Virus record (IMG/VR): IMGVR_UViG_3300022821_000550
Span: 1 to 11,118 of that record
Source: a virus
Strand: one strand, 5' to 3'
Length of the DNA: 11,118 nucleotides
Below, piece after piece: positions 1-11,118 of the stretch (position 1 is the first letter of the stretch; each line of letters opens with the position of its first letter). The notes beneath the pieces are model-generated. The model saw nothing but the letters and a program-made list of their open reading frames with translations, was not told where the DNA came from and made no database searches. Both the position numbers and the translations under genes were made by a program.

Positions 1-127
1 AATATATAATATAAGTGCTGTGTTTATTAATACTTCATTCATCATCTTAGTTACCCCACATTAGTGTGACTGGTATCATATCCATTGGTGATACCACATA
101 GTCTTGACGTGTTCCACGCTTAACTAT
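1..127. repeat. Left copy of an exact 127-nt terminal duplication, identical to 10992..11118
   Basis: Base-by-base comparison: positions 1..127 match 10992..11118 at an offset of 10991 with no mismatch. The unique length is therefore 10,991 bp. Confidence 0.95.
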
Positions 128-523
128 CTTTGCTGTTCCATCTTCTATCATTCTATTTAATATATCTCTTGTAGCCATTCCATCTACTGTCAATACTGTA
201 TCATCTTCATTAATCTGTGCGTGTATATAAATATCATGCTTTGGTTTCTGAAACCACATATCTTCTCCTTTAGTAGTCTTTAAGTCTATAGTCTTTTCAT
301 TAAATATAAAGTCTGGTTCATTCCAACCTTTACCTTCTTGTATAAACTGTATCCACTTGTGAGATATATTCTTTTCAGTTAAGTATCTATGTAGCACAAT
401 CTCTCCAAGTACACCAATATAATTGTTACTGCATTTAAACTTCTCATGCTTCTTAACACTATCAAGTTTATCTCTTAACTCTTTAGCTTCTTTTACTTCC
501 TCTTCTTTAATATATATATTCAT
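47..523 (-). CDS. PD-(D/E)XK superfamily nuclease-like protein (158 aa from the ATG at 523)
   Basis: The track ORF 47..538 starts at a TTG. The ATG at 521-523 is preceded by GGAGGAG about 7 nt upstream. The protein shows the motif order GEIVLHRYL (helix Glu), then EPDFIF (PD), then IDLKT (DxK), which is typical of the restriction-endonuclease-like fold. The specific family was not determined. Confidence 0.6.
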   Translation of the reverse strand: MNIYIKEEEVKEAKELRDKLDSVKKHEKFKCSNNYIGVLGEIVLHRYLTEKNISHKWIQFIQEGKGWNEPDFIFNEKTIDLKTTKGEDMWFQKPKHDIYIHAQINEDDTVLTVDGMATRDILNRMIEDGTAKIVKRGTRQDYVVSPMDMIPVTLMWGN

Positions 524-538
524 TGTTAACTCCTCCAA

Positions 539-892
539 GTTAGTTTTCTTTACTATACTATTATAATGTATGTTCTACTATATAAATGTTTCGCTTTTAG
601 TGTGGTTATTACCACAATAACAGTTATATATTTAACTACACGTTTATTATATTATCTAATAAACATCTGTATCAGCTGTTCCACCTGTCTTCTTTTTCTC
701 TTCTATATACTCTTATGACACTACGCGTTTATATACTTATGTATTTTAATGTAGTAATTACCACACTGACGCCACTTGCCATAGGAGCTCCATACAGTCC
801 ATCCTGTGGACGCATATTTCAGCCATACTAAGTGTTGTCTAATCAGAGAACGTCCACGTATGAGCTTGTATGGACGTCTCAGAGACACGTCA
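539..892 (-). promoter_or_regulatory. 354-nt non-coding region between the end of the structural operon and the nuclease gene; candidate promoter, origin or structured RNA
   Basis: No credible ORF is present. The left part (about 540-700) is very AT-rich, with a TATAAT on the minus strand at 565..560 and a 6-bp-arm hairpin TGTGGT-tatt-ACCACA at 601..616. The right part (about 720-890) is visibly more GC-rich and holds interlocking inverted repeats. Confidence 0.5.
789..877. repeat. Cluster of GTCCA/TGGAC inverted repeats with mutually exclusive pairings
   Basis: GTCCA (797-801) and TGGAC (807-811) form one inverted repeat with a 5-nt spacer. ACGTCCA (850-856) and TGGACGT (871-877) form a 7-bp stem with a 14-nt spacer. 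GTGGACG (806-812) is also the exact complement of CGTCCAC (851-857). TCCATAC (789-795) is complementary to GTATGGA (868-874). A nested imperfect stem GTTGTCT-aatc-AGAGAAC lies at 834-850. Confidence 0.7.
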
Positions 893-1447
893 CTAATTGA
901 ATTCAACCACTTGATAATTAAGAGTTATTGTATCATTACTTGCCTTTCTAATAGCAGTAACTGTTGTTGCATCTGTTAACTCAACATATGCTAATACGTC
1001 ATCACAAACATCAGTTGTACTATTTGCATAACCACTGTAGTTTCCAAGATAAGATATAATACTTTTAGTTGTATCTACTGAATCTATTGTATCTGTATTA
1101 CTTACACCAGTTGCTACTATTGTACCTGATTGGTTAGACTTAAGTACTCCACTATTAAATTCAATAACACAGAAAGCTATAAAACCATCATTACCATATG
1201 ATTCTTGTTTGCCTGTTATAGTAGTTGAATTAGTTAATTCTATTGTTGGTAAAATATTATCCCAATCACTACCACTGTCACCATTTGCTGTCCACCCTGT
1301 CATTAATAACAAAGTATCTGCTGTAGTTACTGAATCTATTGTTGCAGTGTATGAAACATCATTACCCATTGTAACTACTCCATGTTGTATATTCTTAATA
1401 GGGCTACCACCACCTGTTGCTTGTCCAAAAATAATTCCTTGTGCCAT
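893..1447 (-). CDS. Beta-rich virion protein with an internal tandem domain duplication (184 aa); possible fibre-tip or receptor-binding protein
   Basis: The ATG at 1447 is preceded by AAGGAGGT 7 nt upstream and lies 2 nt after the fibre gene stop. The two halves align: T.TIDSV.T ... ELT..TT.T ... V.EFN recurs at about aa 35-97 and aa 118-184, and both halves end in EFN. The function is inferred only from the position after the fibre gene. Confidence 0.75.
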   Translation of the reverse strand: MAQGIIFGQATGGGSPIKNIQHGVVTMGNDVSYTATIDSVTTADTLLLMTGWTANGDSGSDWDNILPTIELTNSTTITGKQESYGNDGFIAFCVIEFNSGVLKSNQSGTIVATGVSNTDTIDSVDTTKSIISYLGNYSGYANSTTDVCDDVLAYVELTDATTVTAIRKASNDTITLNYQVVEFN

Positions 1448-1449
1448 AT

Positions 1450-3348
1450 TTATACCTCCTTTGTGATGAAATAATCAAACGTTATGTCTGTTGATTCAGC
1501 ACTTGTACTTGTTATTGTAAAACTACCTGCTGCACTTACTACACTCCATGTACCAGCTGGGTCTGAGCCTGTTATACTAACTATAACTAAACTTGCTGCT
1601 GTACAAAATGCATCTGTAAATGTTTGAGCTGTGTCATTGTCTGTAAACGTACTATTACTTTGTTTGAATGATGCGTTACCAGAACCTTTAGCTGTGTTAG
1701 CTGTGATTGCACTAGCTTGTGCTCCACTAATTGTTGTTGGATTATTAATTAAATCACCATAGTCATAGTCCCAATCAAATGATACCTTACCATTGTTAGT
1801 AGATATATTAGATTCCATTGTATCTAAGTTAACTGCTTGAGTAACAGAGATATGTCCTACTTTAGTTGAACTTGTACTATCATAACTAATCTTATCTGTA
1901 TTTAAACCAACTGCTGTGACTAAAGTACTGTGGTCTGCACCAGATGCATCTCCTCTATGAGTTGTATTAAGTCCTATTGCTGTTGTGTTAGTACCTATAC
2001 CAGATATATCTTGGTCTCCTGTGTTAGAACCTGATGTGTCTGCTAGTCTTATTTCTTCTGCTGCAATATCAACACCATCAACTAAGCCTGTTACTGCTAA
2101 GTCACCTGTTACTGTTACTAATGGTGTTGCGCCATCAATAGATATTCTTTTAGTTTCTACTGTACCATCATTAACATAAAAGTCCATGTCACCATCTAAG
2201 AATTTGTTCTTAATGTCAGTGACACCAGAATTATTTTGTAATAATACTAACTTGTTTGCTTCTGTTGCATTAGCCATTACTGCAATGTCAGCATATTGTC
2301 CAGCTGGTGATTCAACGTGGAATCTCATTGATTGTCCTGCTGTCTTACCTGTTAAGTGACAGTGTATATTTGCATCTGATTCATCTATTCCAATGCATGC
2401 TTCATGTGCGGTGTTAGTTGTCTTAAAACATATCCCAGGGTTACTAGCATTAGCTGTCTCTATTTTTAATAGAGCATCATTCTTTGTTATATTAATATCA
2501 CTTGTTACTGGACTACCAAGAGTAGTATCACTACCAGCTGCGTGTAACGCTGCCTTCTCTACGTCTGTAACATAGTTATCATCATCAGTCTTAGCTGGTT
2601 CAAAACCTGTGTGTCCTGCACTAGCATAATCTAAATTTGAAAGTGCTGTGTGGTCAGTTACACCACTTGCTGTTGTGCCATAATATAAACCATCTACTCC
2701 ATTAGTTCTAACATAGTAGTCTGTTGTTCCATATCCACTTGGTGTATCAGTTAAGTCTTCAAATGTTGTTGGTGCTGCTGTACCTTGTATACCTTGTATA
2801 CCAGTGTCACCAGTTATACCTTGGATACCTTGAATACCCTGTTCACCAGTTATACCTTGGATACCTTGAATACCCTGTTCACCAGTTGCTCCAGCTGTAC
2901 CTTGTGGTCCTGGTACTGTACTATCTGCTCCAGTTGCTCCAGTGTCACCAGTTACTCCTATTTCACCTTGCGGTCCAGTGTCACCTGTTACACCAATAAC
3001 TCCTTGCGGTCCAGTGTCACCTGTTACACCAATAACTCCCTGTATACCTTGTATACCCTGTATACCTTGTTCACCAGTATCTCCTTGTGGTCCTGCTGTA
3101 CCTTGTGGACCTTGTATTCCATCTACTCCTGCTGTACCTTGTGGACCTGGTACTCCTGGCATTGAGTCAACATAAGCTTTATTAGTAATATCATTACCTT
3201 GAACTGGAACTTTTTCAATAGTTCCTTCTTGAGTGTTAAGTACTTTCTTAATAGCGTAGTCTTCTGTCTGTTCAATAGACTTACGCCCTTCTTGAAATGT
3301 ATATTTCTTTGTTGGTTGTACTTTAAATATTTTATTTACATTTGTCAT
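1450..3348 (-). CDS. Collagen-like tail fibre protein (632 aa)
   Basis: The ATG at 3348 is preceded by GGAGAGGT. Residues 65-142 form 26 uninterrupted GXY triplets, followed by an STVP break and then 15 more triplets (aa 147-191). The C-terminal 440 aa are Ser/Thr/Asn/Gly/Asp-rich with short internal repeats (IGTNTTAIGLNTTH, VGLNTDKISYDS), as in phage fibres. Collagen repeats in phage fibres are established knowledge. Confidence 0.85.
   Translation of the reverse strand: MTNVNKIFKVQPTKKYTFQEGRKSIEQTEDYAIKKVLNTQEGTIEKVPVQGNDITNKAYVDSMPGVPGPQGTAGVDGIQGPQGTAGPQGDTGEQGIQGIQGIQGVIGVTGDTGPQGVIGVTGDTGPQGEIGVTGDTGATGADSTVPGPQGTAGATGEQGIQGIQGITGEQGIQGIQGITGDTGIQGIQGTAAPTTFEDLTDTPSGYGTTDYYVRTNGVDGLYYGTTASGVTDHTALSNLDYASAGHTGFEPAKTDDDNYVTDVEKAALHAAGSDTTLGSPVTSDINITKNDALLKIETANASNPGICFKTTNTAHEACIGIDESDANIHCHLTGKTAGQSMRFHVESPAGQYADIAVMANATEANKLVLLQNNSGVTDIKNKFLDGDMDFYVNDGTVETKRISIDGATPLVTVTGDLAVTGLVDGVDIAAEEIRLADTSGSNTGDQDISGIGTNTTAIGLNTTHRGDASGADHSTLVTAVGLNTDKISYDSTSSTKVGHISVTQAVNLDTMESNISTNNGKVSFDWDYDYGDLINNPTTISGAQASAITANTAKGSGNASFKQSNSTFTDNDTAQTFTDAFCTAASLVIVSITGSDPAGTWSVVSAAGSFTITSTSAESTDITFDYFITKEV
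2776..3156 (-). repeat. Collagen GXY-coding repeat tract with exact 36-nt tandem duplications
   Basis: This tract encodes aa 65-191 of the fibre. An exact 36-nt unit repeats at 2808-2843 and 2844-2879, with 8 nt of a third copy to 2887 (ITGEQGIQGIQG). A second exact 36-nt unit repeats at 2966-3001 and 3002-3037 (GVIGVTGDTGPQ). Shorter 9-nt ccttgtata-type repeats occur near 2781-2800 and 3040-3070. Confidence 0.9.
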
Positions 3349-3374
3349 AGTTTTACCTCTCCATTGTTAAAATT

Positions 3375-3394
3375 AAAAAAAAGGGATTTCTCCC
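3375..3394 (-). terminator. Weak intrinsic terminator or attenuator between the capsid genes and the fibre gene
   Basis: The minus strand reads GGGA-GAAA-TCCC followed by TTTTTTTT. That is a 4-bp stem with a GNRA-type tetraloop and a T8 tract, placed 9 nt after the stop of the 61-aa ORF. The stem is short, so partial termination is more likely than full termination. Confidence 0.4.
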
Positions 3395-3402
3395 AAAATT
3401 AT

Positions 3403-3588
3403 TTAACTTTCTTCTACTGAAGTTATTGCTTCCCAAGATGCTGCTGCTGCTGCTTTAGCTTTACAAATTGATAACTTACCTAAGTCACTATCAAAAACAA
3501 TAGTGCCTACTTCTGCTATCATTGTATTCTTAACTGCTGTAGTAACAATAGGGATAATCAAAGCCTGTGGGTTTAATATATCTGCCAT
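3403..3588 (-). CDS. Hypothetical small protein (61 aa) downstream of the major capsid gene
   Basis: The ORF starts at an ATG 10 nt after the capsid gene stop. It shares the strand and packing of its neighbours and begins MAD, like several other genes here. No recognisable motif was found. Confidence 0.55.
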   Translation of the reverse strand: MADILNPQALIIPIVTTAVKNTMIAEVGTIVFDSDLGKLSICKAKAAAAASWEAITSVEES

Positions 3589-3597
3589 ATTAAATAC

Positions 3598-4470
3598 CTA
3601 CTTTCTTGTATTTGTAATTTTACAAATAGCGTTAGGGCTAGTTACTTGTACTTGTCCTAATTCAAATGCTCTAATTGTAGTTTTAATTCCAGGGTCATCA
3701 AGTTGTAATACTGTTAAAGGAGTTGCTTGTTTCCAAGTCATTGCTTCTTTAGCTACTACTACGTATGCTACATCAGGAACTGTTACTTCTAATGCTTCAG
3801 TTACCATAATCTTTAGTCCTGCAATTTGACCAACTACTCCGCTTGAAACAACATCTGCTGTTTTAAAACTAGGGTTGTTAGTTAACTTACTGTTAGCTAA
3901 AAGATTAGTATAATCTGTACCATTTAAACATAGATATCCTTGTCCGTTTAAAGCATTGATATTGTCTGCTCTAAGTAATTGGATAGCTTGTAAGATGTTT
4001 AAGATAGGGTCTCTGTTTGCTACAGTTGCACTGTCCCATTCATCTCCTGCTCCAATAACTACTGAGTTACCAGCGTTTGCTAGCATACTTGCTGAGATAG
4101 TATTATCTACTGATAATGCTACTGCTCTACCTAATCTTAGTAAAGTTCTTTGAATCATTGGTATGTTGTTAAGTCTTGCGTCTTCATATGAAATTACTCC
4201 TTCCATACCATACTTCTCATTCAATGAGCTTACTTTAGTCCAGCTTACTTCTCCATAAGGAAAGTTTGCTAGTCTTGGTATACCTTTAACTGCTGCTGTA
4301 GTACCACCTTCTAAATCAGTGTTAGTTTCTCTGTAATAAGTTTCAGTCCATGCGTTTGAACTATCTACTGTACATAGAGTTTTTAATTTATATTCCATTA
4401 GTGCAATTGCTTTAATTGCTCCGTCTATATATTCTTTTCTTAAATCTGCTTCTCCTGTTGTGTCTGCCAT
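3598..4470 (-). CDS. Major capsid protein, probably HK97-fold (290 aa)
   Basis: The size is typical of small HK97-like capsid proteins. The gene lies immediately downstream of a DUF2190-like decoration gene and downstream of the portal and a scaffold-like gene, with only 1 nt between the upstream stop and its ATG. The fold was not verified; the call rests on synteny and general sequence character. Confidence 0.7.
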   Translation of the reverse strand: MADTTGEADLRKEYIDGAIKAIALMEYKLKTLCTVDSSNAWTETYYRETNTDLEGGTTAAVKGIPRLANFPYGEVSWTKVSSLNEKYGMEGVISYEDARLNNIPMIQRTLLRLGRAVALSVDNTISASMLANAGNSVVIGAGDEWDSATVANRDPILNILQAIQLLRADNINALNGQGYLCLNGTDYTNLLANSKLTNNPSFKTADVVSSGVVGQIAGLKIMVTEALEVTVPDVAYVVVAKEAMTWKQATPLTVLQLDDPGIKTTIRAFELGQVQVTSPNAICKITNTRK

Positions 4471-4471
4471 T

Positions 4472-4879
4472 TTAAATCAATACCCTCACTGCAATAACTT
4501 CATCATTGCCTGCTGTCTCTAATGCTTTTCCAACTAGTTCAGCTATATCTTGTGCGCCTGCTTCATCTGCTGCTGCTATTAAATTTGCACCACCAAGTTT
4601 AACTACGTTACCTAATGTAACTGCTGCTGAAGTACATTTTAAGTCAAAGATACCATTAGTATAAACTGCTAGTTCTGTTTGACCATCATTAGCTACTTTC
4701 TCACTTGCTGCAATCCCACAAAAGAATTGTCCTTCTGCTGAGCTTACTGCCATTGTTCTTGGGTCTGCTGATAAATACATCAGAGTTCCCTTTGGTATTG
4801 CATTTGCGTCTGCAACTGTATACCTGATAGGGTCTCCCCTATTACCTAGTAATTCTATGATTACTGCTTCATTTGCCAT
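4472..4879 (-). CDS. DUF2190-like head decoration or capsid accessory protein (135 aa from the ATG at 4879)
   Basis: The track start at 4906 is a TTG. The ATG at 4877-4879 is preceded by AAGAGGT 8 nt upstream. The sequence pattern (G..L....., FCGIAA...., G.....V.T.GIFDLK, G..V......., VGKALE.A...E.I.VRV) matches my memory of the DUF2190 family, which commonly sits just upstream of phage capsid genes. Confidence 0.6.
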   Translation of the reverse strand: MANEAVIIELLGNRGDPIRYTVADANAIPKGTLMYLSADPRTMAVSSAEGQFFCGIAASEKVANDGQTELAVYTNGIFDLKCTSAAVTLGNVVKLGGANLIAAADEAGAQDIAELVGKALETAGNDEVIAVRVLI

Positions 4880-4880
4880 T

Positions 4881-5030
4881 TTATTTAACCTCTTTGTCTT
4901 TTTCAAGACTGTCTATTTTCTGTTGTATAGTATTAATATACAGTTCTGCTTGTTCCAAATCTATTGTTGCTTGTTCTTGTACTTTCTTCCAAGCTGCAAT
5001 ACCATCTTCCCATTGAGTTTTATTCATCAT
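4881..5030 (-). CDS. Small coiled-coil protein (49 aa), missing from the ORF track
   Basis: Hand translation gives MMNKTQWEDGIAAWKKVQEQATIDLEQAELYINTIQQKIDSLEKDKEVK. AAGGAG lies 9 nt upstream of the ATG. The start overlaps the stop of the 80-aa gene by 11 nt, and the stop lies 1 nt before the decoration-gene ATG, so it exactly fills an otherwise empty gap. Confidence 0.5.
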   Translation of the reverse strand: MMNKTQWEDGIAAWKKVQEQATIDLEQAELYINTIQQKIDSLEKDKEVK

Positions 5031-5262
5031 TGTTAAGTGCTCCTTCAATTGCTGTACCTTTAAAGTAGTTCTTCATATCCATCTTATCTTTTTCTTCTTT
5101 GGATAATACAACTTCAGGTGTTCCTGCTTCTGATTGACCGCCTAACAGACGTCTTGCTTCCATCTTCTCTAGTCTTTTGACCAGTTCTTCATTCACTTTG
5201 TTTGCGTGTTCTAATCTTTGAGCTGCTTTTTCTGCTTGCTCTATCATACTTTGTTCAGTCAT
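5020..5262 (-). CDS. Alpha-helical, charged protein (80 aa); possible scaffolding protein
   Basis: The ATG at 5262 is preceded by GAGGA. The sequence is rich in E, K, A, Q and L with heptad-like character (EQAEKAAQRLEHANKVNEELVKRLEKMEARR). The position upstream of the decoration and capsid genes fits a scaffold. Function is inferred from position and composition only. Confidence 0.6.
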   Translation of the reverse strand: MTEQSMIEQAEKAAQRLEHANKVNEELVKRLEKMEARRLLGGQSEAGTPEVVLSKEEKDKMDMKNYFKGTAIEGALNNDE

Positions 5263-5273
5263 TTTCTATTTCC

Positions 5274-5405
5274 TCATATTAGTGACATAGCTATACATGC
5301 TATTGTCATTATAAAACCATACGCACCATAAATTAGTTTTGTATGTGTCTTAACTGTTCCATTTGTGTAGTCTAACTTCTGACTAATAGATTCTAATTTT
5401 TCCAT
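5274..5405 (-). CDS. Small single-pass membrane protein (43 aa), missing from the ORF track
   Basis: Hand translation gives MEKLESISQKLDYTNGTVKTHTKLIYGAYGFIMTIACIAMSLI. AAGGA lies 6 nt upstream of the ATG. The C-terminal 20 residues are hydrophobic, the length of a transmembrane helix. The TGA stop sits inside the RBS region of the next gene. Confidence 0.5.
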   Translation of the reverse strand: MEKLESISQKLDYTNGTVKTHTKLIYGAYGFIMTIACIAMSLI

Positions 5406-5440
5406 TATATCCTTGTTAGTATATTCTACTATGAATTTAT

Positions 5441-7024
5441 TCATTGTAACGTTGCCTTCTGTACTTCAGTTAACTGTGCATATGGTACACCAAATGTTTC
5501 CATTGCTAAGTCTTCAAGACTTTGTTGTCCAGGTACTAATGGTTCTTCATCAGATTCTGTTACTGTTTCACCACCAGTTGACAATAAACCAAAGTTCAAT
5601 GTACTTGGTGCTTCTTGTTTGGTGTTTCCACCTTCTCCACTACCAAAGAAAGAACCTCTTCCAGTTGCTGCTATTGCTTCATTATAAAGCTTAGTCACTG
5701 CGCTGAACTGATTGTTAGGGTCTAAAGCAAAAGCTCTAATCTCTGCATCATTTAATAGTTCTTCAGCTGTAGGTCTTTCTCTTAATATTCTGTCTGCCAG
5801 TTCTTGTCCAAAAGCTAGTCTGTCAGTATCCACTGCGTTTTCTTGTGCATTCTGTAAGTCATCTTGTAATTGAAACTTGTCAGGATTCTCATCTTGATAC
5901 TCTTGAATCTCTTCAGGAGTTGCTGTTCCATCAACAATTCTTCTTTGCATCTCTAAAGTAATCTCTTGTTGAGTTGCTGCTTCTTCAGTTGCGTCAATTT
6001 CTTTATCAGTCTTATCAATGAAATGTTTAAATTCTAATGCTGTACTAGCAAAGTAGTTATAAACTGGTATCTTAGATTGAATACTTCCTTGAAACTCAAT
6101 CATTTCTCCCATCATTTCTCTAAGTTCTTTTGCACCTTCAATGTCTCCAAGTTGTAATAACTTAGATGCACCAATACTTAACTGTTGCAAGTCATCCTGA
6201 ATTGCGTTTTGTGTTCCACTGTATGAAAAGTAAGTTGCTAAACCAACACCAGTTACTGTTGAACCCCAACCAAGTAGACTTCTCCAATTGCTTGGACTGA
6301 TTGCTTGAGCTGTTTGAGTAAATATTTGTGATACTCTCTTAGCTTCTGCTGTATTCTTAAGTGCTTTACCACCATTGACTACTTTACCAACTTGAAATAA
6401 TTCAGTTCCACTTGCTATTGCTTGTCCTTTAGTTCCATACTTACCAGCTATTGCTGTTAACTTATTAACAATTGCTTGTGCTTTAGATAATAAATTTCCA
6501 GTTTTAAATGAATTAGCTGCTGCACCACCAGCACCACCAACTCCAAGTAAAGCCATATTACCAACATAGTTAGTAAGCCTTCCAAGTTGTGTAAGTGGTT
6601 CTTGTGTTGTTAAGTCTCTATTGCCAGGGTCTTCTTTGTTTAATAATCCAGTTGTAAACTCACCAACTGCTCTTTGAACTCTATTCTGTGGGTTTGGATT
6701 AGCTGTGAATGTTCCTTGTCCATCAGTATATTCAGATACTTGTGAATCTTGAAATGCTTTAATCTGTGCATCTGCTTCTGGACTTCCAACTCTTGTAAAA
6801 CCTCTTGAACTTCCACCTGAATTTCCAGTGCTTGTGCTTGGGTTTGGAGTACTTTGAGCAATTTCTCCACCAGTTGATGGAGAATTTCTTGGAGGTACTA
6901 CTACAGGGTCTACTGGTTTTCTTGAGTCTTTTACTTCACGTGGTGTTCTACCACCTGGTAAGTAACCACCAAGTTTATCATCAACCTTTTTGTATGTGTC
7001 TTTAATTCTGTCAAAAAATCCCAT
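5441..7024 (-). CDS. Large virion-associated protein (527 aa) with a disordered N-terminus, two Gly/Ala-rich hydrophobic segments and an acidic helical C-terminus; possible ejection, pilot or tape-measure-like protein
   Basis: The track start at 7048 is a TTG. The ATG at 7022-7024 has a perfect AAGGAGGT 7 nt upstream and follows the portal stop by 1 nt. Hydrophobic segments are YVGNMALLGVGGAGGAAANSF and SLLGWGSTVTGVGLATYFSY. No enzymatic motif was seen. The coding call is strong and the functional call is weak. Confidence 0.8.
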   Translation of the reverse strand: MGFFDRIKDTYKKVDDKLGGYLPGGRTPREVKDSRKPVDPVVVPPRNSPSTGGEIAQSTPNPSTSTGNSGGSSRGFTRVGSPEADAQIKAFQDSQVSEYTDGQGTFTANPNPQNRVQRAVGEFTTGLLNKEDPGNRDLTTQEPLTQLGRLTNYVGNMALLGVGGAGGAAANSFKTGNLLSKAQAIVNKLTAIAGKYGTKGQAIASGTELFQVGKVVNGGKALKNTAEAKRVSQIFTQTAQAISPSNWRSLLGWGSTVTGVGLATYFSYSGTQNAIQDDLQQLSIGASKLLQLGDIEGAKELREMMGEMIEFQGSIQSKIPVYNYFASTALEFKHFIDKTDKEIDATEEAATQQEITLEMQRRIVDGTATPEEIQEYQDENPDKFQLQDDLQNAQENAVDTDRLAFGQELADRILRERPTAEELLNDAEIRAFALDPNNQFSAVTKLYNEAIAATGRGSFFGSGEGGNTKQEAPSTLNFGLLSTGGETVTESDEEPLVPGQQSLEDLAMETFGVPYAQLTEVQKATLQ

Positions 7025-7025
7025 C

Positions 7026-8123
7026 TTAGATACCTCCTTCATTTGCAAAGCTTGGTACTAACTTGCTTGACTGGTTTAAGTCTTGCTCTTCACTACCATC
7101 TTTTCTATCATCACTTAACAAATTGTTTTGTAAGCTTGCAGGGAATTCTAAGTTAATCTCTAACTGAACTTGTGCTAGTATTTGTTCTTCAATGTATAGT
7201 TGTTCTTCTTCAATTGTCTGTTCAAAAGCTAGATATGATATCTGTGCTGCTGACTGAGTTAGTTCTTGTGAGCCACCAATGATTATTTGTGGTACACCAA
7301 CTGCTTGATAGAAGTATTGGTTAAGTAATTGAATCCAAGGCATTGGATTAAGACTTGAGTTACTTGGCACTGACGCCAGTTCAGTCTCTACTGAGCCTTT
7401 TGGAATAAATATATCTTCTCCTTCTCCTTTACTTGCTGCTACTTTAGCTTTGAAAGTATTAATCTTAGTTGGAACGTCTGTGTCTAGTTTCCAAATTCTT
7501 ACAGGATATATATTTCTATGTAAGAGCTTCTTATAATCAGCCATTGCTTCATTACGTGCTAAGATTATCCATTCTACTGATTCTATAATAGATACGCCAT
7601 GTATTTCATCAGCTATTCTATTTCTACAAAGATGTAAAATCTTCTCTGGATTGAATTTAATACTACCACTCTTTGCTTTTTGTTCATATCTCTTAATAAT
7701 ACCTTTGGAGTCTACTATAACTTTAATAGTACCAGGGTCTATTGGTTTGATATTAATCAGTGTTTCACCATCTTTTATGATTTCAGCAAAAGCGTCACCA
7801 TAAATATGATATTCTCTAATCAAGTTTTCTAAAATACTATTGAATGAATCTTTTCCAAAACCAGTCATAGTATCTATGGTTAAACCTGTAACCTCATCTG
7901 TTGAAATACCTTTACCAATTGTCCAAGTTGCTTTTGCATCTATAGCCATTTTAAGTTCAGGTACTGATTTGTAATATCCTAAGTACTGTGCTGCATTAGC
8001 GTTCTGATATTCTGTTTCTTTATCTCCAGTAGCTGCGTCAGTTGTCTGACTAGACACTGAGAAATCAGTAATAACAGATGCTTGTGCTCCAGTCTTTGTG
8101 GAATCTATTTCTGTGTATGCCAT
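7026..8123 (-). CDS. Portal protein (365 aa)
   Basis: AAGGAGA lies 9 nt upstream of the ATG. The sequence has HK97-type portal character: Y..S.....AI..KA....G.G, GDAFAEII, ILHLC..R.ADE.HG.S, an acidic helical C-terminal part, and GVPQII.GG. The position in the head module supports the call. Confidence 0.8.
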   Translation of the reverse strand: MAYTEIDSTKTGAQASVITDFSVSSQTTDAATGDKETEYQNANAAQYLGYYKSVPELKMAIDAKATWTIGKGISTDEVTGLTIDTMTGFGKDSFNSILENLIREYHIYGDAFAEIIKDGETLINIKPIDPGTIKVIVDSKGIIKRYEQKAKSGSIKFNPEKILHLCRNRIADEIHGVSIIESVEWIILARNEAMADYKKLLHRNIYPVRIWKLDTDVPTKINTFKAKVAASKGEGEDIFIPKGSVETELASVPSNSSLNPMPWIQLLNQYFYQAVGVPQIIIGGSQELTQSAAQISYLAFEQTIEEEQLYIEEQILAQVQLEINLEFPASLQNNLLSDDRKDGSEEQDLNQSSKLVPSFANEGGI

Positions 8124-8136
8124 TTTTTATTTCTCC

Positions 8137-8511
8137 TTATTCTTCCCAACCAATTATAGTTACATCATAATGAGCACCACTTGCTGGTGATAGGAAAATT
8201 CCTATATCAAACTGTAACGGTGTTGTAAAATTAACAATATTATTAATATCATCTGATGCTGAATTACCAATAAACTTGATTGTGCCTGCTGTACTTGTTC
8301 CATCATAGAACGTTTCAGTATTTGGTGAACCACCAAGACATGTATACATAATTGAAGTAACGTACAATGTTCTTCCAGTTGTAACTGTATATATTGAAAC
8401 AGCTTGAACATCACTAGCAGTAGTATCTACTTGAGTACTACCAGATTGTTGCCATCTTGGTTTCAAGCTATCTTCACTATCACCAAATATTGAATCTACA
8501 GTAAGTGCCAT
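8137..8511 (-). CDS. Hypothetical beta-rich structural protein (124 aa)
   Basis: The ATG directly abuts the TAG stop of the upstream gene, with GAGAGGT 7 nt upstream. The sequence is Ser/Thr/Gly-rich and probably all-beta. No motif was recognised. Confidence 0.65.
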   Translation of the reverse strand: MALTVDSIFGDSEDSLKPRWQQSGSTQVDTTASDVQAVSIYTVTTGRTLYVTSIMYTCLGGSPNTETFYDGTSTAGTIKFIGNSASDDINNIVNFTTPLQFDIGIFLSPASGAHYDVTIIGWEE

Positions 8512-8880
8512 CTAAGCAACCTCTCTAATAAAGTCTGAAACTTTCTTATCTCTAAGTATTTGTAAGTCTCTAAGATATGCATCTCTAAGAATGTTAATCA
8601 TATCTTCTGCTTCAATACGTGAAGTATAACCACTCATGTCATATTGAATAACATAAATTGCTGCTATACATGTTGCACATTCTTTTAATATGCCTTTTGT
8701 ATCATCATTAAGTGTTGAGTAAACATCACTAAAGTTAAATCTACATACTGAGTTAATATAACTCTCTGCCTCTGTCATGTATTGATTAACGTAAGCTTCT
8801 GCTTTACTTGTTGCGCTAGCTCCTGTGCCAGCTTTTCTTTCTACTTCTGCTGTTGTCGCAAAAATACCTGTATCTGCCAT
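8512..8880 (-). CDS. gp6-like head-tail connector (adaptor) protein (122 aa)
   Basis: The N-terminal region ATTAEVERKAG...SKAEAYVNQYMTEAESYINSVCRFNF and the helical remainder resemble HK97 gp6 / SPP1 gp15-type adaptors. A GAGGT RBS lies within the end of terL. Confidence 0.5.
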   Translation of the reverse strand: MADTGIFATTAEVERKAGTGASATSKAEAYVNQYMTEAESYINSVCRFNFSDVYSTLNDDTKGILKECATCIAAIYVIQYDMSGYTSRIEAEDMINILRDAYLRDLQILRDKKVSDFIREVA

Positions 8881-8882
8881 TT

Positions 8883-10202
8883 TTATTCTACCTCATAATA
8901 TAAGTTTAAACTCTTATCTCTAACACTCCACGCTGCACGGATAATTCCCTCAGCTATATGAGTATATCTACCATGAATTCTTACTTCATTAGTATTTCTG
9001 TTAGTTTCATATATAATAGACTTAAGACTAGCAAAAATATCAGTGTCTTTTAGAAACTGAATCTCTTTACGTTCCATCATTTTAAGTAAATTAATATATA
9101 AGTCTTCTTTTAAAAGCTTTCTTTTTCTGCTTGAGTCAACATCAATAGCCCTTCTTGCGTTATTGATGGCAACTACTTTTCTTTTAGTTTGTTCATGTAT
9201 AAGTAACTGGTCAAAGACTGCTACGCCTAAACCACCATCATCAATATACATCTTTTTGAAATCATACTCTAAATCTAATTCTAATATCTTATCAATTGTA
9301 TCAGTTGTTAACGTGTACTTGTGTACAATATTATCTCTTTGGAGATAATTATCTCCTTTTCTTTGAAATATCTCAAATGTAGTCTCATCACCACCCATTC
9401 TGGCAACGTCTACACCCAAATAATACTCTCCAGCTGGTGTGGAGGAAGAAACCCTCTGGAGAGTTTGGGATGATTCTATAAGCTCATCAGGAAATAGTTG
9501 TCCTAGTTCCTCTAAAAACTGTGCTAAATATTGTTGTGAATATTGAAATTCAGTCATACGTGTCTTCTCACGTGCTAGATGTTGCATCATCATAGCTCTC
9601 TGAGGCTCTGGTCTTTCTTCAGCAACCTGTTCAGAGTTCACATGAAACGTCTTAAAGCCCATACTTGTATCAGTATAAGCTTCATAGAAGTAACCTTGAG
9701 CTGCATTTGGTGTGCTTAATAACCATAGCTTACCACCAGTTGTTAATAACATTGGAGTAATACTTGACCAAATAGCCTCTGGAAGATATGCTGCTTCATC
9801 AGGGATAATAATATCCACTGTCATACCAAGAACTCCAAGACCATATTGACCTACTGCTTTAGTAACAATACTACTACCATTGTTAGTAAATACTTTATGT
9901 TTAGTTGGCTTCTTAAGCCCTTTCATAATATAAGATTTATAATTGTCAAATAAATATAACATAATCTTCTGCAACATTCTCTCTGCTTGGTCTTCTGTTA
10001 CAGAAATAATAAGAACGTGCTTGTTTTTGTTATTAATAATATACTCAGCAGCCTTAATAGCTACTATCTGACTCTTTCCTACCTGTCTACCAGAGCAAAT
10101 GCATAGATTACCCTCTGCTACCAGTACTTCTTTCTGCCATTTGTCCAGAGTGAAGCCATAGTTGGGTTCTTTGCTTGGTTGTTTAGTAGATTTTTTAGTC
10201 AT
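8883..10202 (-). CDS. terL: Terminase large subunit (439 aa)
   Basis: The ATPase domain shows Walker A SGRQVGKS (aa 37-44), Walker B VDIIIPDEAAY and the coupling motif LLSTP. The RNase H-like nuclease domain shows YLGVDVARMGGDETTF and YIDDGGLG. No Shine-Dalgarno sequence precedes the ATG (CACTCAAAAATTATAAAAA-ATG). Confidence 0.9.
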   Translation of the reverse strand: MTKKSTKQPSKEPNYGFTLDKWQKEVLVAEGNLCICSGRQVGKSQIVAIKAAEYIINNKNKHVLIISVTEDQAERMLQKIMLYLFDNYKSYIMKGLKKPTKHKVFTNNGSSIVTKAVGQYGLGVLGMTVDIIIPDEAAYLPEAIWSSITPMLLTTGGKLWLLSTPNAAQGYFYEAYTDTSMGFKTFHVNSEQVAEERPEPQRAMMMQHLAREKTRMTEFQYSQQYLAQFLEELGQLFPDELIESSQTLQRVSSSTPAGEYYLGVDVARMGGDETTFEIFQRKGDNYLQRDNIVHKYTLTTDTIDKILELDLEYDFKKMYIDDGGLGVAVFDQLLIHEQTKRKVVAINNARRAIDVDSSRKRKLLKEDLYINLLKMMERKEIQFLKDTDIFASLKSIIYETNRNTNEVRIHGRYTHIAEGIIRAAWSVRDKSLNLYYEVE

Positions 10203-10306
10203 TTTTTATAATTTTTGAGTGTAAGATGTTACTCATTATACTCTTAACTCTTCAAAAGCGCATCAACGCAGTTGTATTTGTTGTGTTACTACCACCCTAT
10301 CCACCT

Positions 10307-10338
10307 ATTGCATAGCTGGTACAGCCATTGCATAGCTG
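10307..10338. repeat. Two exact 12-nt direct repeats ATTGCATAGCTG spaced 20 bp start to start
   Basis: The copies are at 10307-10318 and 10327-10338, and each is preceded by CC(T). A TTGCAT half-copy recurs at 10376-10381. Confidence 0.85.
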
Positions 10339-10345
10339 TTGAGTA

Positions 10346-10373
10346 TGAGTAACAAGTAAATAAGTGTTACTCA
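10346..10373. repeat. Perfect 9-bp-arm inverted repeat TGAGTAACA / TGTTACTCA with a 10-nt spacer
   Basis: The arms are at 10346-10354 and 10365-10373. The same 9-mer TGTTACTCA also occurs at 10227-10235, giving three copies in total (two direct, one inverted). Confidence 0.85.
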
Positions 10374-10545
10374 GTTTGCATTCCATAAAGGGCATACATA
10401 TGATGTTACCAAGCGTGCAACTTTACTATGTAAAGTTGAATGTTTGTATGCATTTAAATAGTTATGTATTTTATGTGAATGACAAACCATTATCACCATT
10501 AACTTAATATATCTCTTAGTACTCTTATTAGTATGTGTGCGCTTT

Positions 10546-10725
10546 TTACTGCACATTCTCCTCTGACCACTCACCAGTCCATCTGTTCTTGTTCTTATAT
10601 GTGTCAAACTTCTTAGCATAGTTACCAGCTATCTTGTTATTCTTTGTTTGAAAACACTCTCTACAAGTATGACCACAGCAAGGTTCTTGACAAACCCTGC
10701 ATAATCTATCTTTTGGTCTACTCAT
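10546..10725 (-). CDS. Cys-rich zinc-ribbon-like small protein (59 aa), missing from the ORF track
   Basis: Hand translation gives MSRPKDRLCRVCQEPCCGHTCRECFQTKNNKIAGNYAKKFDTYKNKNRWTGEWSEENVQ. It has a CxxC-x3-CC-x-H-x-C-xx-C cluster followed by a basic tail. Its ATG overlaps the end of the upstream ORF (GATGAGTAG), and AGGAGTG lies upstream. Confidence 0.6.
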   Translation of the reverse strand: MSRPKDRLCRVCQEPCCGHTCRECFQTKNNKIAGNYAKKFDTYKNKNRWTGEWSEENVQ

Positions 10726-10864
10726 CTTCTAAGTCACTCCTATCATAGATTGGTATCAAGTTTACATATGTTCCAACTGCTAAGTTAGCGCCTTTTGGAA
10801 TTGTTATCAGTAAATTATCATCTCTATGTTTATTCTTCTGTAATCTTACTCTTGCTATAATCAT
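10718..10864 (-). CDS. AbrB/MazE/SpoVT-like swapped-hairpin DNA-binding protein (48 aa), missing from the ORF track
   Basis: Hand translation gives MIIARVRLQKNKHRDDNLLITIPKGANLAVGTYVNLIPIYDRSDLEDE. The ITIPK...VG..V.L pattern resembles the AbrB-type looped-hinge-helix fold. AGGAGGT lies 8 nt upstream of the ATG. The gene shares an ATGA start/stop overlap with the upstream micro-ORF. Confidence 0.55.
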   Translation of the reverse strand: MIIARVRLQKNKHRDDNLLITIPKGANLAVGTYVNLIPIYDRSDLEDE

Positions 10865-10956
10865 TTGTTCTTACCTCCTATCATTAATATAATCTCATCT
10901 AGTTTGTCACAAGTTCTTTGTATCTTCTTCTCCAACTCTATTAATTCTGCTTTCAT
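10861..10956 (-). CDS. Micro-ORF, 31 aa helical peptide (alternative in-frame ATG at 10980 gives 39 aa)
   Basis: Hand translation gives MKAELIELEKKIQRTCDKLDEIILMIGGKNK. GAGGAATAAA lies upstream of the ATG. Its TGA overlaps the ATG of the AbrB-like ORF. The ORF is short, so the coding status is uncertain. Confidence 0.4.
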   Translation of the reverse strand: MKAELIELEKKIQRTCDKLDEIILMIGGKNK

Positions 10957-11036
10957 TTTATTCCTCTTACTAGCTTCCATACTGTGCTTACAATATATAA
11001 TATAAGTGCTGTGTTTATTAATACTTCATTCATCAT
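10953..11036 (-). CDS. Possible 27-aa hydrophobic micro-protein spanning the circular junction
   Basis: Hand translation gives MMNEVLINTALILYIVSTVWKLVRGIK. The ATG follows the nuclease TAA by 1 nt, with GGGGT upstream. The TGA overlaps the ATG at 10956 in an ATGA arrangement. This ORF is mutually exclusive with the 39-aa extension of the next ORF. It is very short, so this is speculative. Confidence 0.25.
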   Translation of the reverse strand: MMNEVLINTALILYIVSTVWKLVRGIK

Positions 11037-11118
11037 CTTAGTTACCCCACATTAGTGTGACTGGTATCATATCCATTGGTGATACCACATAGTCTTGACG
11101 TGTTCCACGCTTAACTAT
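10992..11118. repeat. Right copy of the exact 127-nt terminal duplication (circular-closure overlap or direct terminal repeat)
   Basis: Identical to 1..127. It contains the 3' end of the nuclease gene and the start of the 27-aa micro-ORF, so the coding sequence continues across the junction. Confidence 0.95.
11038..11118 (-). CDS. 3' fragment of the PD-(D/E)XK nuclease gene (duplicate of 47..127 within the terminal overlap)
   Basis: It lies inside the exact 127-nt duplication. It is the same gene as 47..523 seen a second time, not an independent locus. Confidence 0.8.
   Translation of the reverse strand: MVKRGTRQDYVVSPMDMIPVTLMWGN

Follow-up and report, generated by a model that had tools for sequence, protein, structure and literature searches.

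The subject of this analysis is a chain of four overlapping micro-ORFs (short open reading frames) on the minus strand of an 11,118-nt stretch of viral DNA (IMG/VR virus record IMGVR_UViG_3300022821_000550, positions 1 to 11,118), hereafter referred to as the window. The chain occupies positions 10546-11036, lies between a gene for a PD-(D/E)XK-like nuclease and a non-coding region that precedes terL, and encodes products of 27, 31 (or 39), 48 and 59 amino acids (aa), named here o27, o31, o48 and o59. Results showed that the four micro-ORFs are real genes, probably translated by coupling through their stop/start overlaps, and that o48 and o59 belong to two protein families, each recognisable by a clear signature, that had not been described before. 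Small DNA-binding early phage proteins as such are already familiar; the coupled pair of a beta-strand protein and a zinc-knuckle protein beside a nuclease has no named counterpart. Our preferred reading, to which we give a probability of about 40%, is that o48 and o59 may act as a nucleic-acid-binding pair on a promoter-like motif and a palindrome upstream of terL, and so control the late operon. A first-pass annotation made from the sequence had offered a replacement for TerS, an early/late switch, replication-initiation factors and, more weakly, a MazE-like antitoxin with a small toxin as possible roles, and we infer that the early/late switch is the most likely of these.

Layout and coding evidence of the micro-ORF chain

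The genes of the chain (the cassette), and the nuclease gene of the same operon, are as follows:

10953..11036, minus strand: o27, a 27-aa hydrophobic peptide (MMNEVLINTALILYIVSTVWKLVRGIK) with one predicted membrane-spanning stretch and a basic C-terminus
10861..10956, minus strand: o31, a 31-aa helical, charged peptide (MKAELIELEKKIQRTCDKLDEIILMIGGKNK); an alternative ATG at 10980 would give 39 aa
10718..10864, minus strand: o48, a 48-aa beta-strand protein with an acidic tail, representing a new family with a 'GD-box'-like core
10546..10725, minus strand: o59, a 59-aa zinc-knuckle protein with a basic N-terminus, the pattern C9-x2-C12-x8-C21-x2-C24, a TKNNKIAG.Y motif and a variable tail
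47..523, minus strand: a 158-aa PD-(D/E)XK-like protein, first gene of the cassette operon, with GGAGG 8 nt before its ATG at 523

The overlapping arrangement had been described in the first-pass annotation, and our reanalysis bore it out in full. Four minus-strand ORFs tile the 491 nt of 10546-11036 at the same coordinates, and they are joined by ATGA at o27/o31, ATGA at o31/o48 and ATGAGTAG at o48/o59. ATG-initiated ORFs cover 100% of this region, while 5000 dinucleotide-preserving shuffles of it gave a mean coverage of 14% and a maximum of 84%, with none of the 5000 reaching 90%; the arrangement is therefore beyond chance. The annotation had also placed the chain directly after the nuclease gene, which holds only across the circular junction. 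The window is a genome that assembled as a circle of 10,991 bp; its bases 1-127 are identical to 10992-11118 (a 127-nt assembly overlap), and because of this circularity the stop codon of the nuclease gene (47..523) is found again at 11038-11040, one base before the ATG of o27.

Shine-Dalgarno (SD) sites had been claimed for most of the four ORFs. Judged against the confident genes of the window, which have GAGG or GGAG 7-10 nt upstream, this was correct for o31 (AGAGGA), o48 (GGAGGT) and, with a long, 11-nt spacer, o59 (AGGAG); the GGGGT of o27 is weak. Codon usage was scored with a log-odds model trained on the 12 larger genes of the window. Scores for o27, o31 and o48 were 0.46, 0.54 and 0.51 bits per codon, respectively, compared with 0.35-0.48 for the nuclease and TerL, and the frames alternative to these three ORFs all scored negatively. 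The score of o59 was just 0.04 bits per codon, yet this was the best of its six frames and above that of an overlapping 82-aa ORF. The strand composition of the chain region is the most coding-like of the genome (GC skew -0.35). The 82-aa ORF itself (10371..10619, minus strand), which overlaps the 3' end of o59 and the non-coding region, is probably spurious: its coding score is negative, and its product is basic and of low complexity. We also considered that o31 and o48 might be joined by a programmed frameshift, but dropped this because a slippery site is absent.

Gene callers treated the chain inconsistently: o59 was called on three short contigs and skipped on the full-length L085, o27 was never called, and the 39-aa form of o31 was called by one pipeline. 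Since L002-L004 and L085 are 100% identical to the window across the region, they carry no evolutionary signal. None of the four products matched an entry in Pfam, PHROGs or NCBIfam, o48 and o59 had no match among PDB sequences in single-sequence searches, and searches of GenBank phages (queries: o59 and the o48 homologue of L094) gave chance-level matches or none. Word-seeded searches of a set of 5.8 billion proteins with o48 and o59 returned only the queries themselves, a misleading result, as homologues were found later.

The o48 and o59 families and their neighbourhoods

Homologues were discovered via the neighbouring nuclease and by an exhaustive HMMER search, with genomic contexts retrieved for several of the HMMER matches. 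Four homologues of the nuclease, of 47-69% identity, were found, and the contigs of three of these, together with three IMG/VR loci, carry the cassette. The frames of o48 and o59 are intact in relatives that differ by 30-45% at the nucleotide level. Pairwise ratios of non-synonymous to synonymous substitution (dN/dS) were 0.22-0.35 for o59, compared with 0.16-0.31 for the nuclease, and 0.5-0.7 for o48 (measured over ~40 codons, part of which overlap o59), and these values indicate that both are genuine protein-coding genes under purifying selection. Thus, micro-ORFs of 38-74 aa that gene callers handle inconsistently can be genuine, conserved and under selection. Conservation of this kind, which the first-pass annotation had named as one check on its proposal, was found for o48 and o59 only; o27 and o31 have no sequence homologues, and the conservation of o31 is positional rather than at the level of sequence.

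The HMMER search with o59 recovered 11 further proteins at E < 1e-3, ten of which are 51-74 aa long; the eleventh, a 288-aa zinc-knuckle repeat protein (P0016), was spurious. The family occurs in at least 14 sequence types, including L088 and L089/L093, and its signature consists of basic residues, C-R-V-C-G-x-P-C-x-G-x-x-C-R-x-C-x-x-T-K-N-N-K-I-A-G-R-Y and a variable tail. C9, V11, C12, C21, C24 and N30 are invariant in an alignment of 13 sequences (A7), and G18, K28, G34 and Y36 are nearly so, while C16 and H19 of the window protein are not conserved. The first-pass description of o59 as a Cys-rich, zinc-ribbon-like protein stands in part. Cysteine makes up 6 of the 59 residues of the protein but 0.64% of the remaining proteome (binomial P = 2e-6), and the four putative metal ligands (C9, C12, C21 and C24) form two CxxC pairs in all 13 sequences, the pattern of a zinc knuckle. 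However, no curated zinc-ribbon or zinc-finger profile of Pfam or NCBIfam matched it, and PDB profile matches had E >= 0.17. An AlphaFold2 (AF2) single-sequence model showed the knuckle and one helix at a predicted local distance difference test score (pLDDT) of 57.

The best sub-threshold PDB matches of o59 were two knuckles, the zinc knuckle with which ribosomal protein uS14 binds rRNA and one at the C-terminus of a tRNA thiolase. The zinc form of uS14 and the knuckles of TtuA/Ncs6-type tRNA thiolases share with o59 the pattern R-x-C-R-V-C ... G ... C-R-x-C-F followed by basic or polar residues, and these knuckles bind RNA or sit at nucleic-acid interfaces. With E values of 0.2-0.6, only 16-30 residues matched and a spacer of 8 in o59 rather than 11-12, the likeness is a motif resemblance, not homology. 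The sole match to the o59 signature in a cellular genome, in a metagenome-assembled genome of the Methanosarcinales archaeon UBA203 (L096, 247-294), is a knuckle of 16 residues (CRVCGEPCTGGLCQAC) at the C-terminal end of a protein that is otherwise unrelated. This knuckle is similar to the sub-threshold tRNA thiolase match from PDB, and is a shared motif that carries no information on the host.

Homologues of o48 were found in L087/88, L089/93, L090/91, L094, L097, L098, L099 and L101/102, about nine lineages in all. Their core reads M-I-I-x-K/R-V-(W/R), a short loop and hydrophobic-x-T-I/V-P, then, 5-6 residues after the P, G-(D/T/S)-Y-V-x-I and usually an acidic tail; T21, P23, G31 and V34 are invariant in an alignment of eight sequences (A9). 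The AF2 single-sequence monomer (pLDDT 70) has strands at 2-8, 17-22 and 34-39 and no helix. A Foldseek search of PDB with this model found nothing (best E = 4), and the family profile reached only E ~0.1 against PDB, with halves of designed double-psi barrels and, via G-D-Y-V, the N-terminus of GatD.

The first-pass annotation had called o48 AbrB/MazE-like, and this was not supported. The window protein did not match Pfam PF04014 (MazE_antitoxin) at E <= 10, and only one of eight family members, the 60-aa protein of L094, gave a sub-threshold match (E = 0.068, 13.6 bits against a cut-off of 24.7). When the eight relatives were compared by hhalign with an alignment of AbrB, Abh, SpoVT, MazE and 7d2n, whose sequences were verified against PDB, the probability was 1.7% over 23 aligned columns. 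The register chosen was nevertheless the one that the TIP...GD pattern predicts, and a gap of four residues falls at the position of the helix. Indeed, the swapped-hairpin proteins AbrB, MazE and SpoVT and the 'cradle-loop' GD-box barrels resemble o48 in length (~45 aa) and in their succession of a strand, 'TIP', a short connector and a 'G-D/T-Y-V-x-I' strand. In o48, however, the stretch corresponding to the helix that joins IP to GD is some four residues shorter, with no helix predicted there, a fourth strand is missing, and all scores lie below significance. We regard o48 as a small beta protein of GD-box type that would probably need to oligomerise. An apparent likeness of its tail to a 40-aa 'LKLIPN..LEDLEEIF' peptide of related viruses was dropped, as the hidden Markov model (HMM) of that peptide had no match in the window.

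The suggestion that o48 and o59 are a type II toxin-antitoxin pair, in which a MazE-like o48 would be the antitoxin and o59 the toxin, stabilising a plasmid-like carrier state, is very improbable. The gene arrangement alone fits it, as two small genes overlap and the putative DNA-binding partner comes first, and the single sub-threshold MazE_antitoxin match (E = 0.068) could be counted in its favour. On the other hand, the AbrB/MazE comparisons failed, searches of Pfam, PHROGs and NCBIfam linked o59 to no toxin family, the portion of o59 that is conserved is a zinc knuckle, o59 has been lost where o48 was kept (L090 and L094, below), and neither an integrase nor partition genes were seen in the genome by Pfam and PHROGs.

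The order of genes in the window and in each lineage is given below (TM, transmembrane; percentages are identities of TerL):

Window: nuclease, TM peptide, helix peptide, o48, o59, non-coding region, TerL
L087/88: nuclease, 67-aa protein (helical extension plus o48 core), 63-aa o59, 41-aa TM peptide
L089/L093 (81%): 38-aa helix peptide, nuclease, 44-aa o48, 66-aa o59, non-coding region, TerL
L097: nuclease, 49-aa o48, 74-aa o59
L098: nuclease, 38-aa o48, ~30-aa TM peptide, 54-aa o59
L099: 49-aa o48, 63-aa o59
L101/102 (77%): HNH endonuclease, 42-aa o48, 70-aa o59, non-coding region, TerL
L094 (68%): nuclease, 39-aa helix peptide, 60-aa o48, 33-aa TM peptide, TerL; no o59
L090/91 (75% over the visible part): nuclease, 70-aa protein (helix plus o48), non-coding region, 43-aa TM peptide, TerL; no o59
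L100: 122-aa protein without family matches, then a 62-aa o59 homologue; no adjacent nuclease or o48 seen

Wherever o48 and o59 are both present their genes overlap, by 1, 4, 8, 8, 17 or 20 nt. The visible upstream gene encodes a PD-(D/E)XK or HNH nuclease in all lineages but L100. It is PD-(D/E)XK-like in the window, L086-88, L089/93, L090/91, L094, L097 and L098, whereas in L101 (121-543) and L102 (1-204) an HNH endonuclease (Pfam HNH, E = 2.4e-11) stands in the same slot, a replacement by a non-homologous nuclease. E41, D71, D80 and K82, the residues expected to be catalytic, are invariant among five homologues of the PD-(D/E)XK-like protein; none of the five members matched Pfam, NCBIfam, PHROGs or PDB.

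This neighbourhood is what would be expected if o48 and o59 were accessory subunits that target or regulate the adjacent PD-(D/E)XK or HNH nuclease, whether on replication/recombination intermediates, in the degradation of host DNA or in helping TerL to cut concatemers (cf. HNH in cos phages). The nuclease gene runs into the following ORF or ends right beside it (ATGA in L098, 10 nt of overlap in L088, a gap of 1 nt in the window), a Hjc resolvase (PF01870, 31 bits) or an HNH gene lies directly before terL in other branches of the virus family, and since the genome has no replication genes, DNA processing must rest on a minimal set of proteins. We nevertheless consider such a role somewhat unlikely. 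The exchange of PD-(D/E)XK for HNH leaves o48 and o59 unchanged, which argues against a specific protein-protein partnership, and the nuclease assignment is motif-based, without a profile match. Moreover, the nuclease domain occurs in quite a different context in L095 (2222-3076), a different virus-like contig, as the C-terminal half of a 284-aa protein; its gene is followed by one for a protein of >329 aa, with neither o48 nor o59.

The two smaller peptides are more loosely attached. Most lineages have a hydrophobic and a helical micro-peptide, in positions that vary. In o27 the maximum 17-residue Kyte-Doolittle mean is 1.64 (residues 4-20), and hydrophobic micro-ORFs of ~30-43 aa are found in L088 (1104-1229), L090 (1740-1871), L094 (1307-1408) and L098 (~298-390), either within the cassette or directly before, even overlapping, the terL start; these might encode lysis, membrane-anchoring or exclusion peptides. 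The helical peptide appears as a free 39-aa ORF in L094, as an in-frame N-terminal extension of the o48 homologue in L088, L090 and L097, and upstream of the nuclease (38 aa) in L089/L093, and there is none in L098 and L101. The 'o31-o48 fusion' of these relatives is weaker than it first appeared: in L088 an internal GAGGAGG and an ATG are kept at the start of o48, so that long and short forms may both be made.

Non-coding elements and possible control of the late operon

As the first-pass annotation had stated, the chain stands before a repeat-bearing non-coding region and terL. The elements concerned are:

10203..10545, minus strand: non-coding region of 343 nt between o59 and terL, with a promoter-like motif, a palindrome, two 13-nt direct repeats and a block ending in TATAAT
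10447-10473: promoter-like motif, copy 1, before the terL unit
722..748, minus strand: promoter-like motif, copy 2, ~200 nt upstream of the nuclease gene
10418-10438: palindrome or hairpin of 9 bp, CAACTTTAC-ATA-GTAAAGTTG, 13 nt after the motif core and upstream of terL only
8883..10202, minus strand: terL, first gene of the structural/packaging operon, downstream of the cassette (Pfam Terminase_6N, E = 5.9e-11; phrog_2, E = 5.9e-35)

The 18-nt core of the motif, AATACATAA[CG]TAT[AT]TAAA, is present in both non-coding regions of the window and in both of L088 (at 123 and 1266), and single copies occur in L086, L087, L093 and L046. It is TATA-like and would suit a bacterial -10 region or an archaeal BRE/TATA element (BRE, B recognition element), depending on the host; we call it promoter-like in this provisional sense. 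The palindrome recurs at L088 1295-1315 and L093 2604-2624. In L097 the motif is followed in the same place by a different, 11-bp hairpin (5598-5623), and L102 has TAAATTTAC-N3-GTAAATTTA at 674-694. In fact, a perfect inverted repeat of 9-11 bp is found in every pre-terL region examined (eight lineages), with a TTTAC...GTAAA core in four. The block of motif and hairpin, ~60 nt in length, is nearly invariant among the window, L088 and L093, while their coding DNA is only ~56-74% identical. The palindrome could be an operator, a structure in the 5' leader, a small RNA or a packaging signal.

A further conserved block, GCGCTTTT(G/A)A(A/T)GAG(T/A)TAA, lies ~50 nt before terL and is followed in the window by TATAAT. 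This perfect TATAAT, ~30 nt upstream of terL, is inside a block (GCGCTTTTGAAGAGTTAAGAG) conserved in L088 and L093. We also observed that terL, unlike almost all other genes of the window, has no SD motif (window 10202-10260). A search of Rfam gave only a chance-level S-element match. These elements are candidate targets for the small, putatively DNA-binding proteins encoded just upstream, and could also be packaging or replication signals.

Taken with the conserved pair of genes, these elements suggest the following scheme. The sole non-structural operon would comprise a promoter-like motif, the PD-(D/E)XK-like nuclease, o27, o31, o48 and o59, with the micro-ORFs in the distal position. The o48 protein would probably dimerise into a little barrel, and o59 would contribute a four-cysteine zinc knuckle with a basic N-terminus and the conserved KNNKIAGRY motif. 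The pair might then bind the duplicated promoter-like motif and the palindrome that follows it upstream of terL only, and, once bound, might control the start of the late (terL-to-tail) transcription unit, a role that in other phages falls to activators whose genes close the early region. The membrane micro-peptide o27 and the helical o31 would be looser accessories of the cassette.

Several observations are in line with this scheme. The motif lies upstream of both transcription units in the window and in L088, the two invariant CxxC pairs of o59 are flanked by basic residues, and the window, L088 and L093, which share an identical motif and hairpin, all carry o59, while L090 and L094, which have no o59, also have no such block. 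There is also a known precedent for the layout. [quoted passage not shown] As far as that account extends, they resemble the cassette in being small proteins encoded immediately upstream of the terminase/late operon with a regulated promoter between, and differ from it in being larger, helical and sigma-like, with no sequence or fold relationship. Here there are two micro-proteins, one a beta-strand protein and one a zinc knuckle, whose binding and activation are putative.

Other observations weigh against late-operon control by o48 and o59. No DNA-binding fold was identified, the AF2 models are weak single-sequence models (pLDDT 70 and 57) and Foldseek found nothing. The o59 protein is dispensable in two lineages (L090 and L094), and its co-occurrence with the palindrome comes from very few independent lineages. 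For o48 the dN/dS is fairly high (0.5-0.7), and overlap with o59 restricts change at the 3' end of the gene. The constant nuclease partner fits DNA processing at least as well as transcription. Lastly, the host may be bacterial or archaeal, so that even the promoter assignment of the motif is tentative.

The same region bears on the proposal that o48, o59 or both are a TerS surrogate, recognising a pac or cos site within 10203-10545 and handing the DNA to TerL. HNH endonucleases cooperate with terminases, and one occupies the nuclease slot of L101/102. Like a phage terS, the cassette precedes terL, with an intervening region that holds a conserved palindrome and direct repeats, and a profile search with Pfam and PHROGs detected neither a canonical TerS elsewhere in the genome nor, as the first-pass annotation had also held, any other DNA-binding domain. 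Even so, we find the proposal quite unlikely. Phage TerS proteins have protomers of 15-21 kDa with a helix-turn-helix (HTH) at the N-terminus and a helical oligomerisation core (PMC9611059). The micro-ORF products, at 27-59 aa (~3-7 kDa), are far from this size; none of them matched an HTH family in Pfam, PHROGs or NCBIfam, and a helical-hairpin core is likewise lacking. When 8 o48 and 13 o59 relatives were scanned, the sole PHROG TerS match was that of one o59 relative to phrog_1595, at E = 0.077. Distribution also speaks against it. The o59 gene is absent from L090 and L094 despite TerL proteins 75% and 68% identical to that of the window, and neither family is co-inherited with TerL, both being absent from the sister lineages L033 (TerL 69%) and L006 (TerL 62%) and from 80 other TerL-family loci. 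The early genes of L033 and L006 are unrelated and oppositely oriented. Given the loss of o59 in L090 and L094 and these unrelated early genes, the module appears to be exchangeable relative to TerL, unlike a cognate TerS. In addition, the gene just before terL is highly variable in the wider family (HTH, ribbon-helix-helix (RHH), zinc ribbon, HNH, Hjc, PAPS reductase), and between o59 and terL there are 343 nt that include a promoter-like block.

A bolder variant would combine nuclease, beta mini-protein, zinc knuckle and membrane micro-peptide into a minimal device for DNA processing and initiation of packaging that replaces both TerS and the replication proteins. We regard this as improbable. 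If it were true, the conserved palindrome upstream of terL would be the recognition site of the device, which would serve what are possibly the smallest known tailed viruses, with circularly assembling genomes of ~11 kb, no polymerase and possibly archaeal hosts.

Returning to late-operon control by o48 and o59, the pair and the adjacent motif and palindrome make up a small, directly testable protein-DNA system. Non-structural genes are very few in this 11-kb tailed virus, which has no replication genes, and the role of the cassette is therefore likely to be central to a minimal virus cycle, be it regulation of the late operon, guidance of the nuclease or marking of DNA for packaging.

The virus family

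The context provided by the virus family may be more remarkable than the cassette itself. All credible genes of the window are on the minus strand, in the following order:

892..539 to terL: non-coding region (892..539), PD-(D/E)XK-like protein of 158 aa (523..47), the four micro-ORFs, non-coding region (10545..10203), TerL
After TerL: two conserved ~120-aa proteins, portal, 535-aa protein
After the 535-aa protein: cement/decoration protein, HK97-type capsid protein, collagen-like fibre, 184-aa protein

Searches of Pfam and PHROGs with the proteins of the window revealed no polymerase, primase, helicase, integrase, TerS or helix-turn-helix protein. A scan based on TerL revealed a family of related elements comprising at least 80 metagenome loci and one IMG/VR genome. 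Circular members (L001, L012 and L036) measure 10.76, 10.95 and 12.3 kb and have the structural gene order of the window; the family encodes TerL, portal, a cement protein, an HK97-type capsid protein and a fibre, with no recognisable replication gene. Phi29-like phages are described as the smallest known tailed viruses in a 2024 review (PMC11476376); with tailed genomes of ~11-12 kb that lack replication genes, members of the present family are smaller.

Homologues of the micro-ORFs or of the nuclease were found in none of the 80 TerL-related loci by tblastn, phmmer and family HMMs. The region upstream of terL in these loci is instead a hypervariable set of small genes, including RHH proteins (CcdA-like Pfam match), a recurrent ~70-aa HTH protein, winged-helix proteins (TrmB- or HVO-type matches), Hjc resolvase (PF01870, 31 bits), HNH endonucleases, zinc-ribbon proteins and a PAPS-reductase-like protein. 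Conversely, HMMs of the recurrent early families (RHH, HTH, Hjc, winged HTH and the 40-aa 'LKLIPN..LEDLEEIF' peptide) had no match in the window.

This variability is relevant to a further alternative, in which o48 and o59 are anti-defence or host-takeover proteins within an array of fast-evolving, small early genes, whose products would block the immunity of the host or divert its machinery. The early module is replaced by unrelated small genes in L033, L006, L001 and most of the 80 loci, the sequences of o27 and o31 are not conserved, the components change their order from one lineage to another, and a study of verdandiviruses reads similar short, poorly conserved gene arrays as likely anti-defence (10.1101/2021.07.29.453957). 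However, purifying selection on o59 is comparable with that on the nuclease, and a basic zinc knuckle, the most conserved part of o59, is more typical of nucleic-acid binders than of known inhibitors. No likeness to described anti-defence families was seen, in an analysis that included no search aimed at such families. On balance, we hold this alternative to be unlikely.

The verdandiviruses of Asgard archaea have several things in common with the window family, namely small tailed genomes, the lack of replication genes, a gene for a cement protein ahead of that for the capsid, small-gene arrays in which zinc-binding and HTH proteins occur, and similar sediment sample types (10.1101/2021.07.29.453957). 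Their genomes are 15-20 kb, compared with ~11-12 kb in the window family, in which a tape-measure gene was not recognised. In contrast to the genes of the verdandivirus arrays, o48 and o59 form a conserved pair under purifying selection within a subclade and are not free-floating ORFans.

Hjc genes (PF01870, above threshold) and winged-helix genes are found upstream of terL in L030, L052, L078, L025, L037 and L047 (~85-90 aa) and in L001 (10311-10565). The best matches of the winged-helix proteins are to TrmB-, HVO_A0261- and ArnR1-type families, and the samples of the relatives are mostly anoxic sediments or meromictic lakes. Together, the Hjc and winged-helix types and the sample types hint at archaeal hosts for the virus family.

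Where assemblies from different samples are otherwise identical, they still differ in the collagen-like fibre gene, and in no other part of the genome. The fibre of the window (1450-3348, 632 aa) and that of L085 (4468-6330, 620 aa) are 97.3% identical with 21 gaps, and the difference reflects either a polymorphism in repeat number or slippage of the assembly in the Gly-X-Y repeats.

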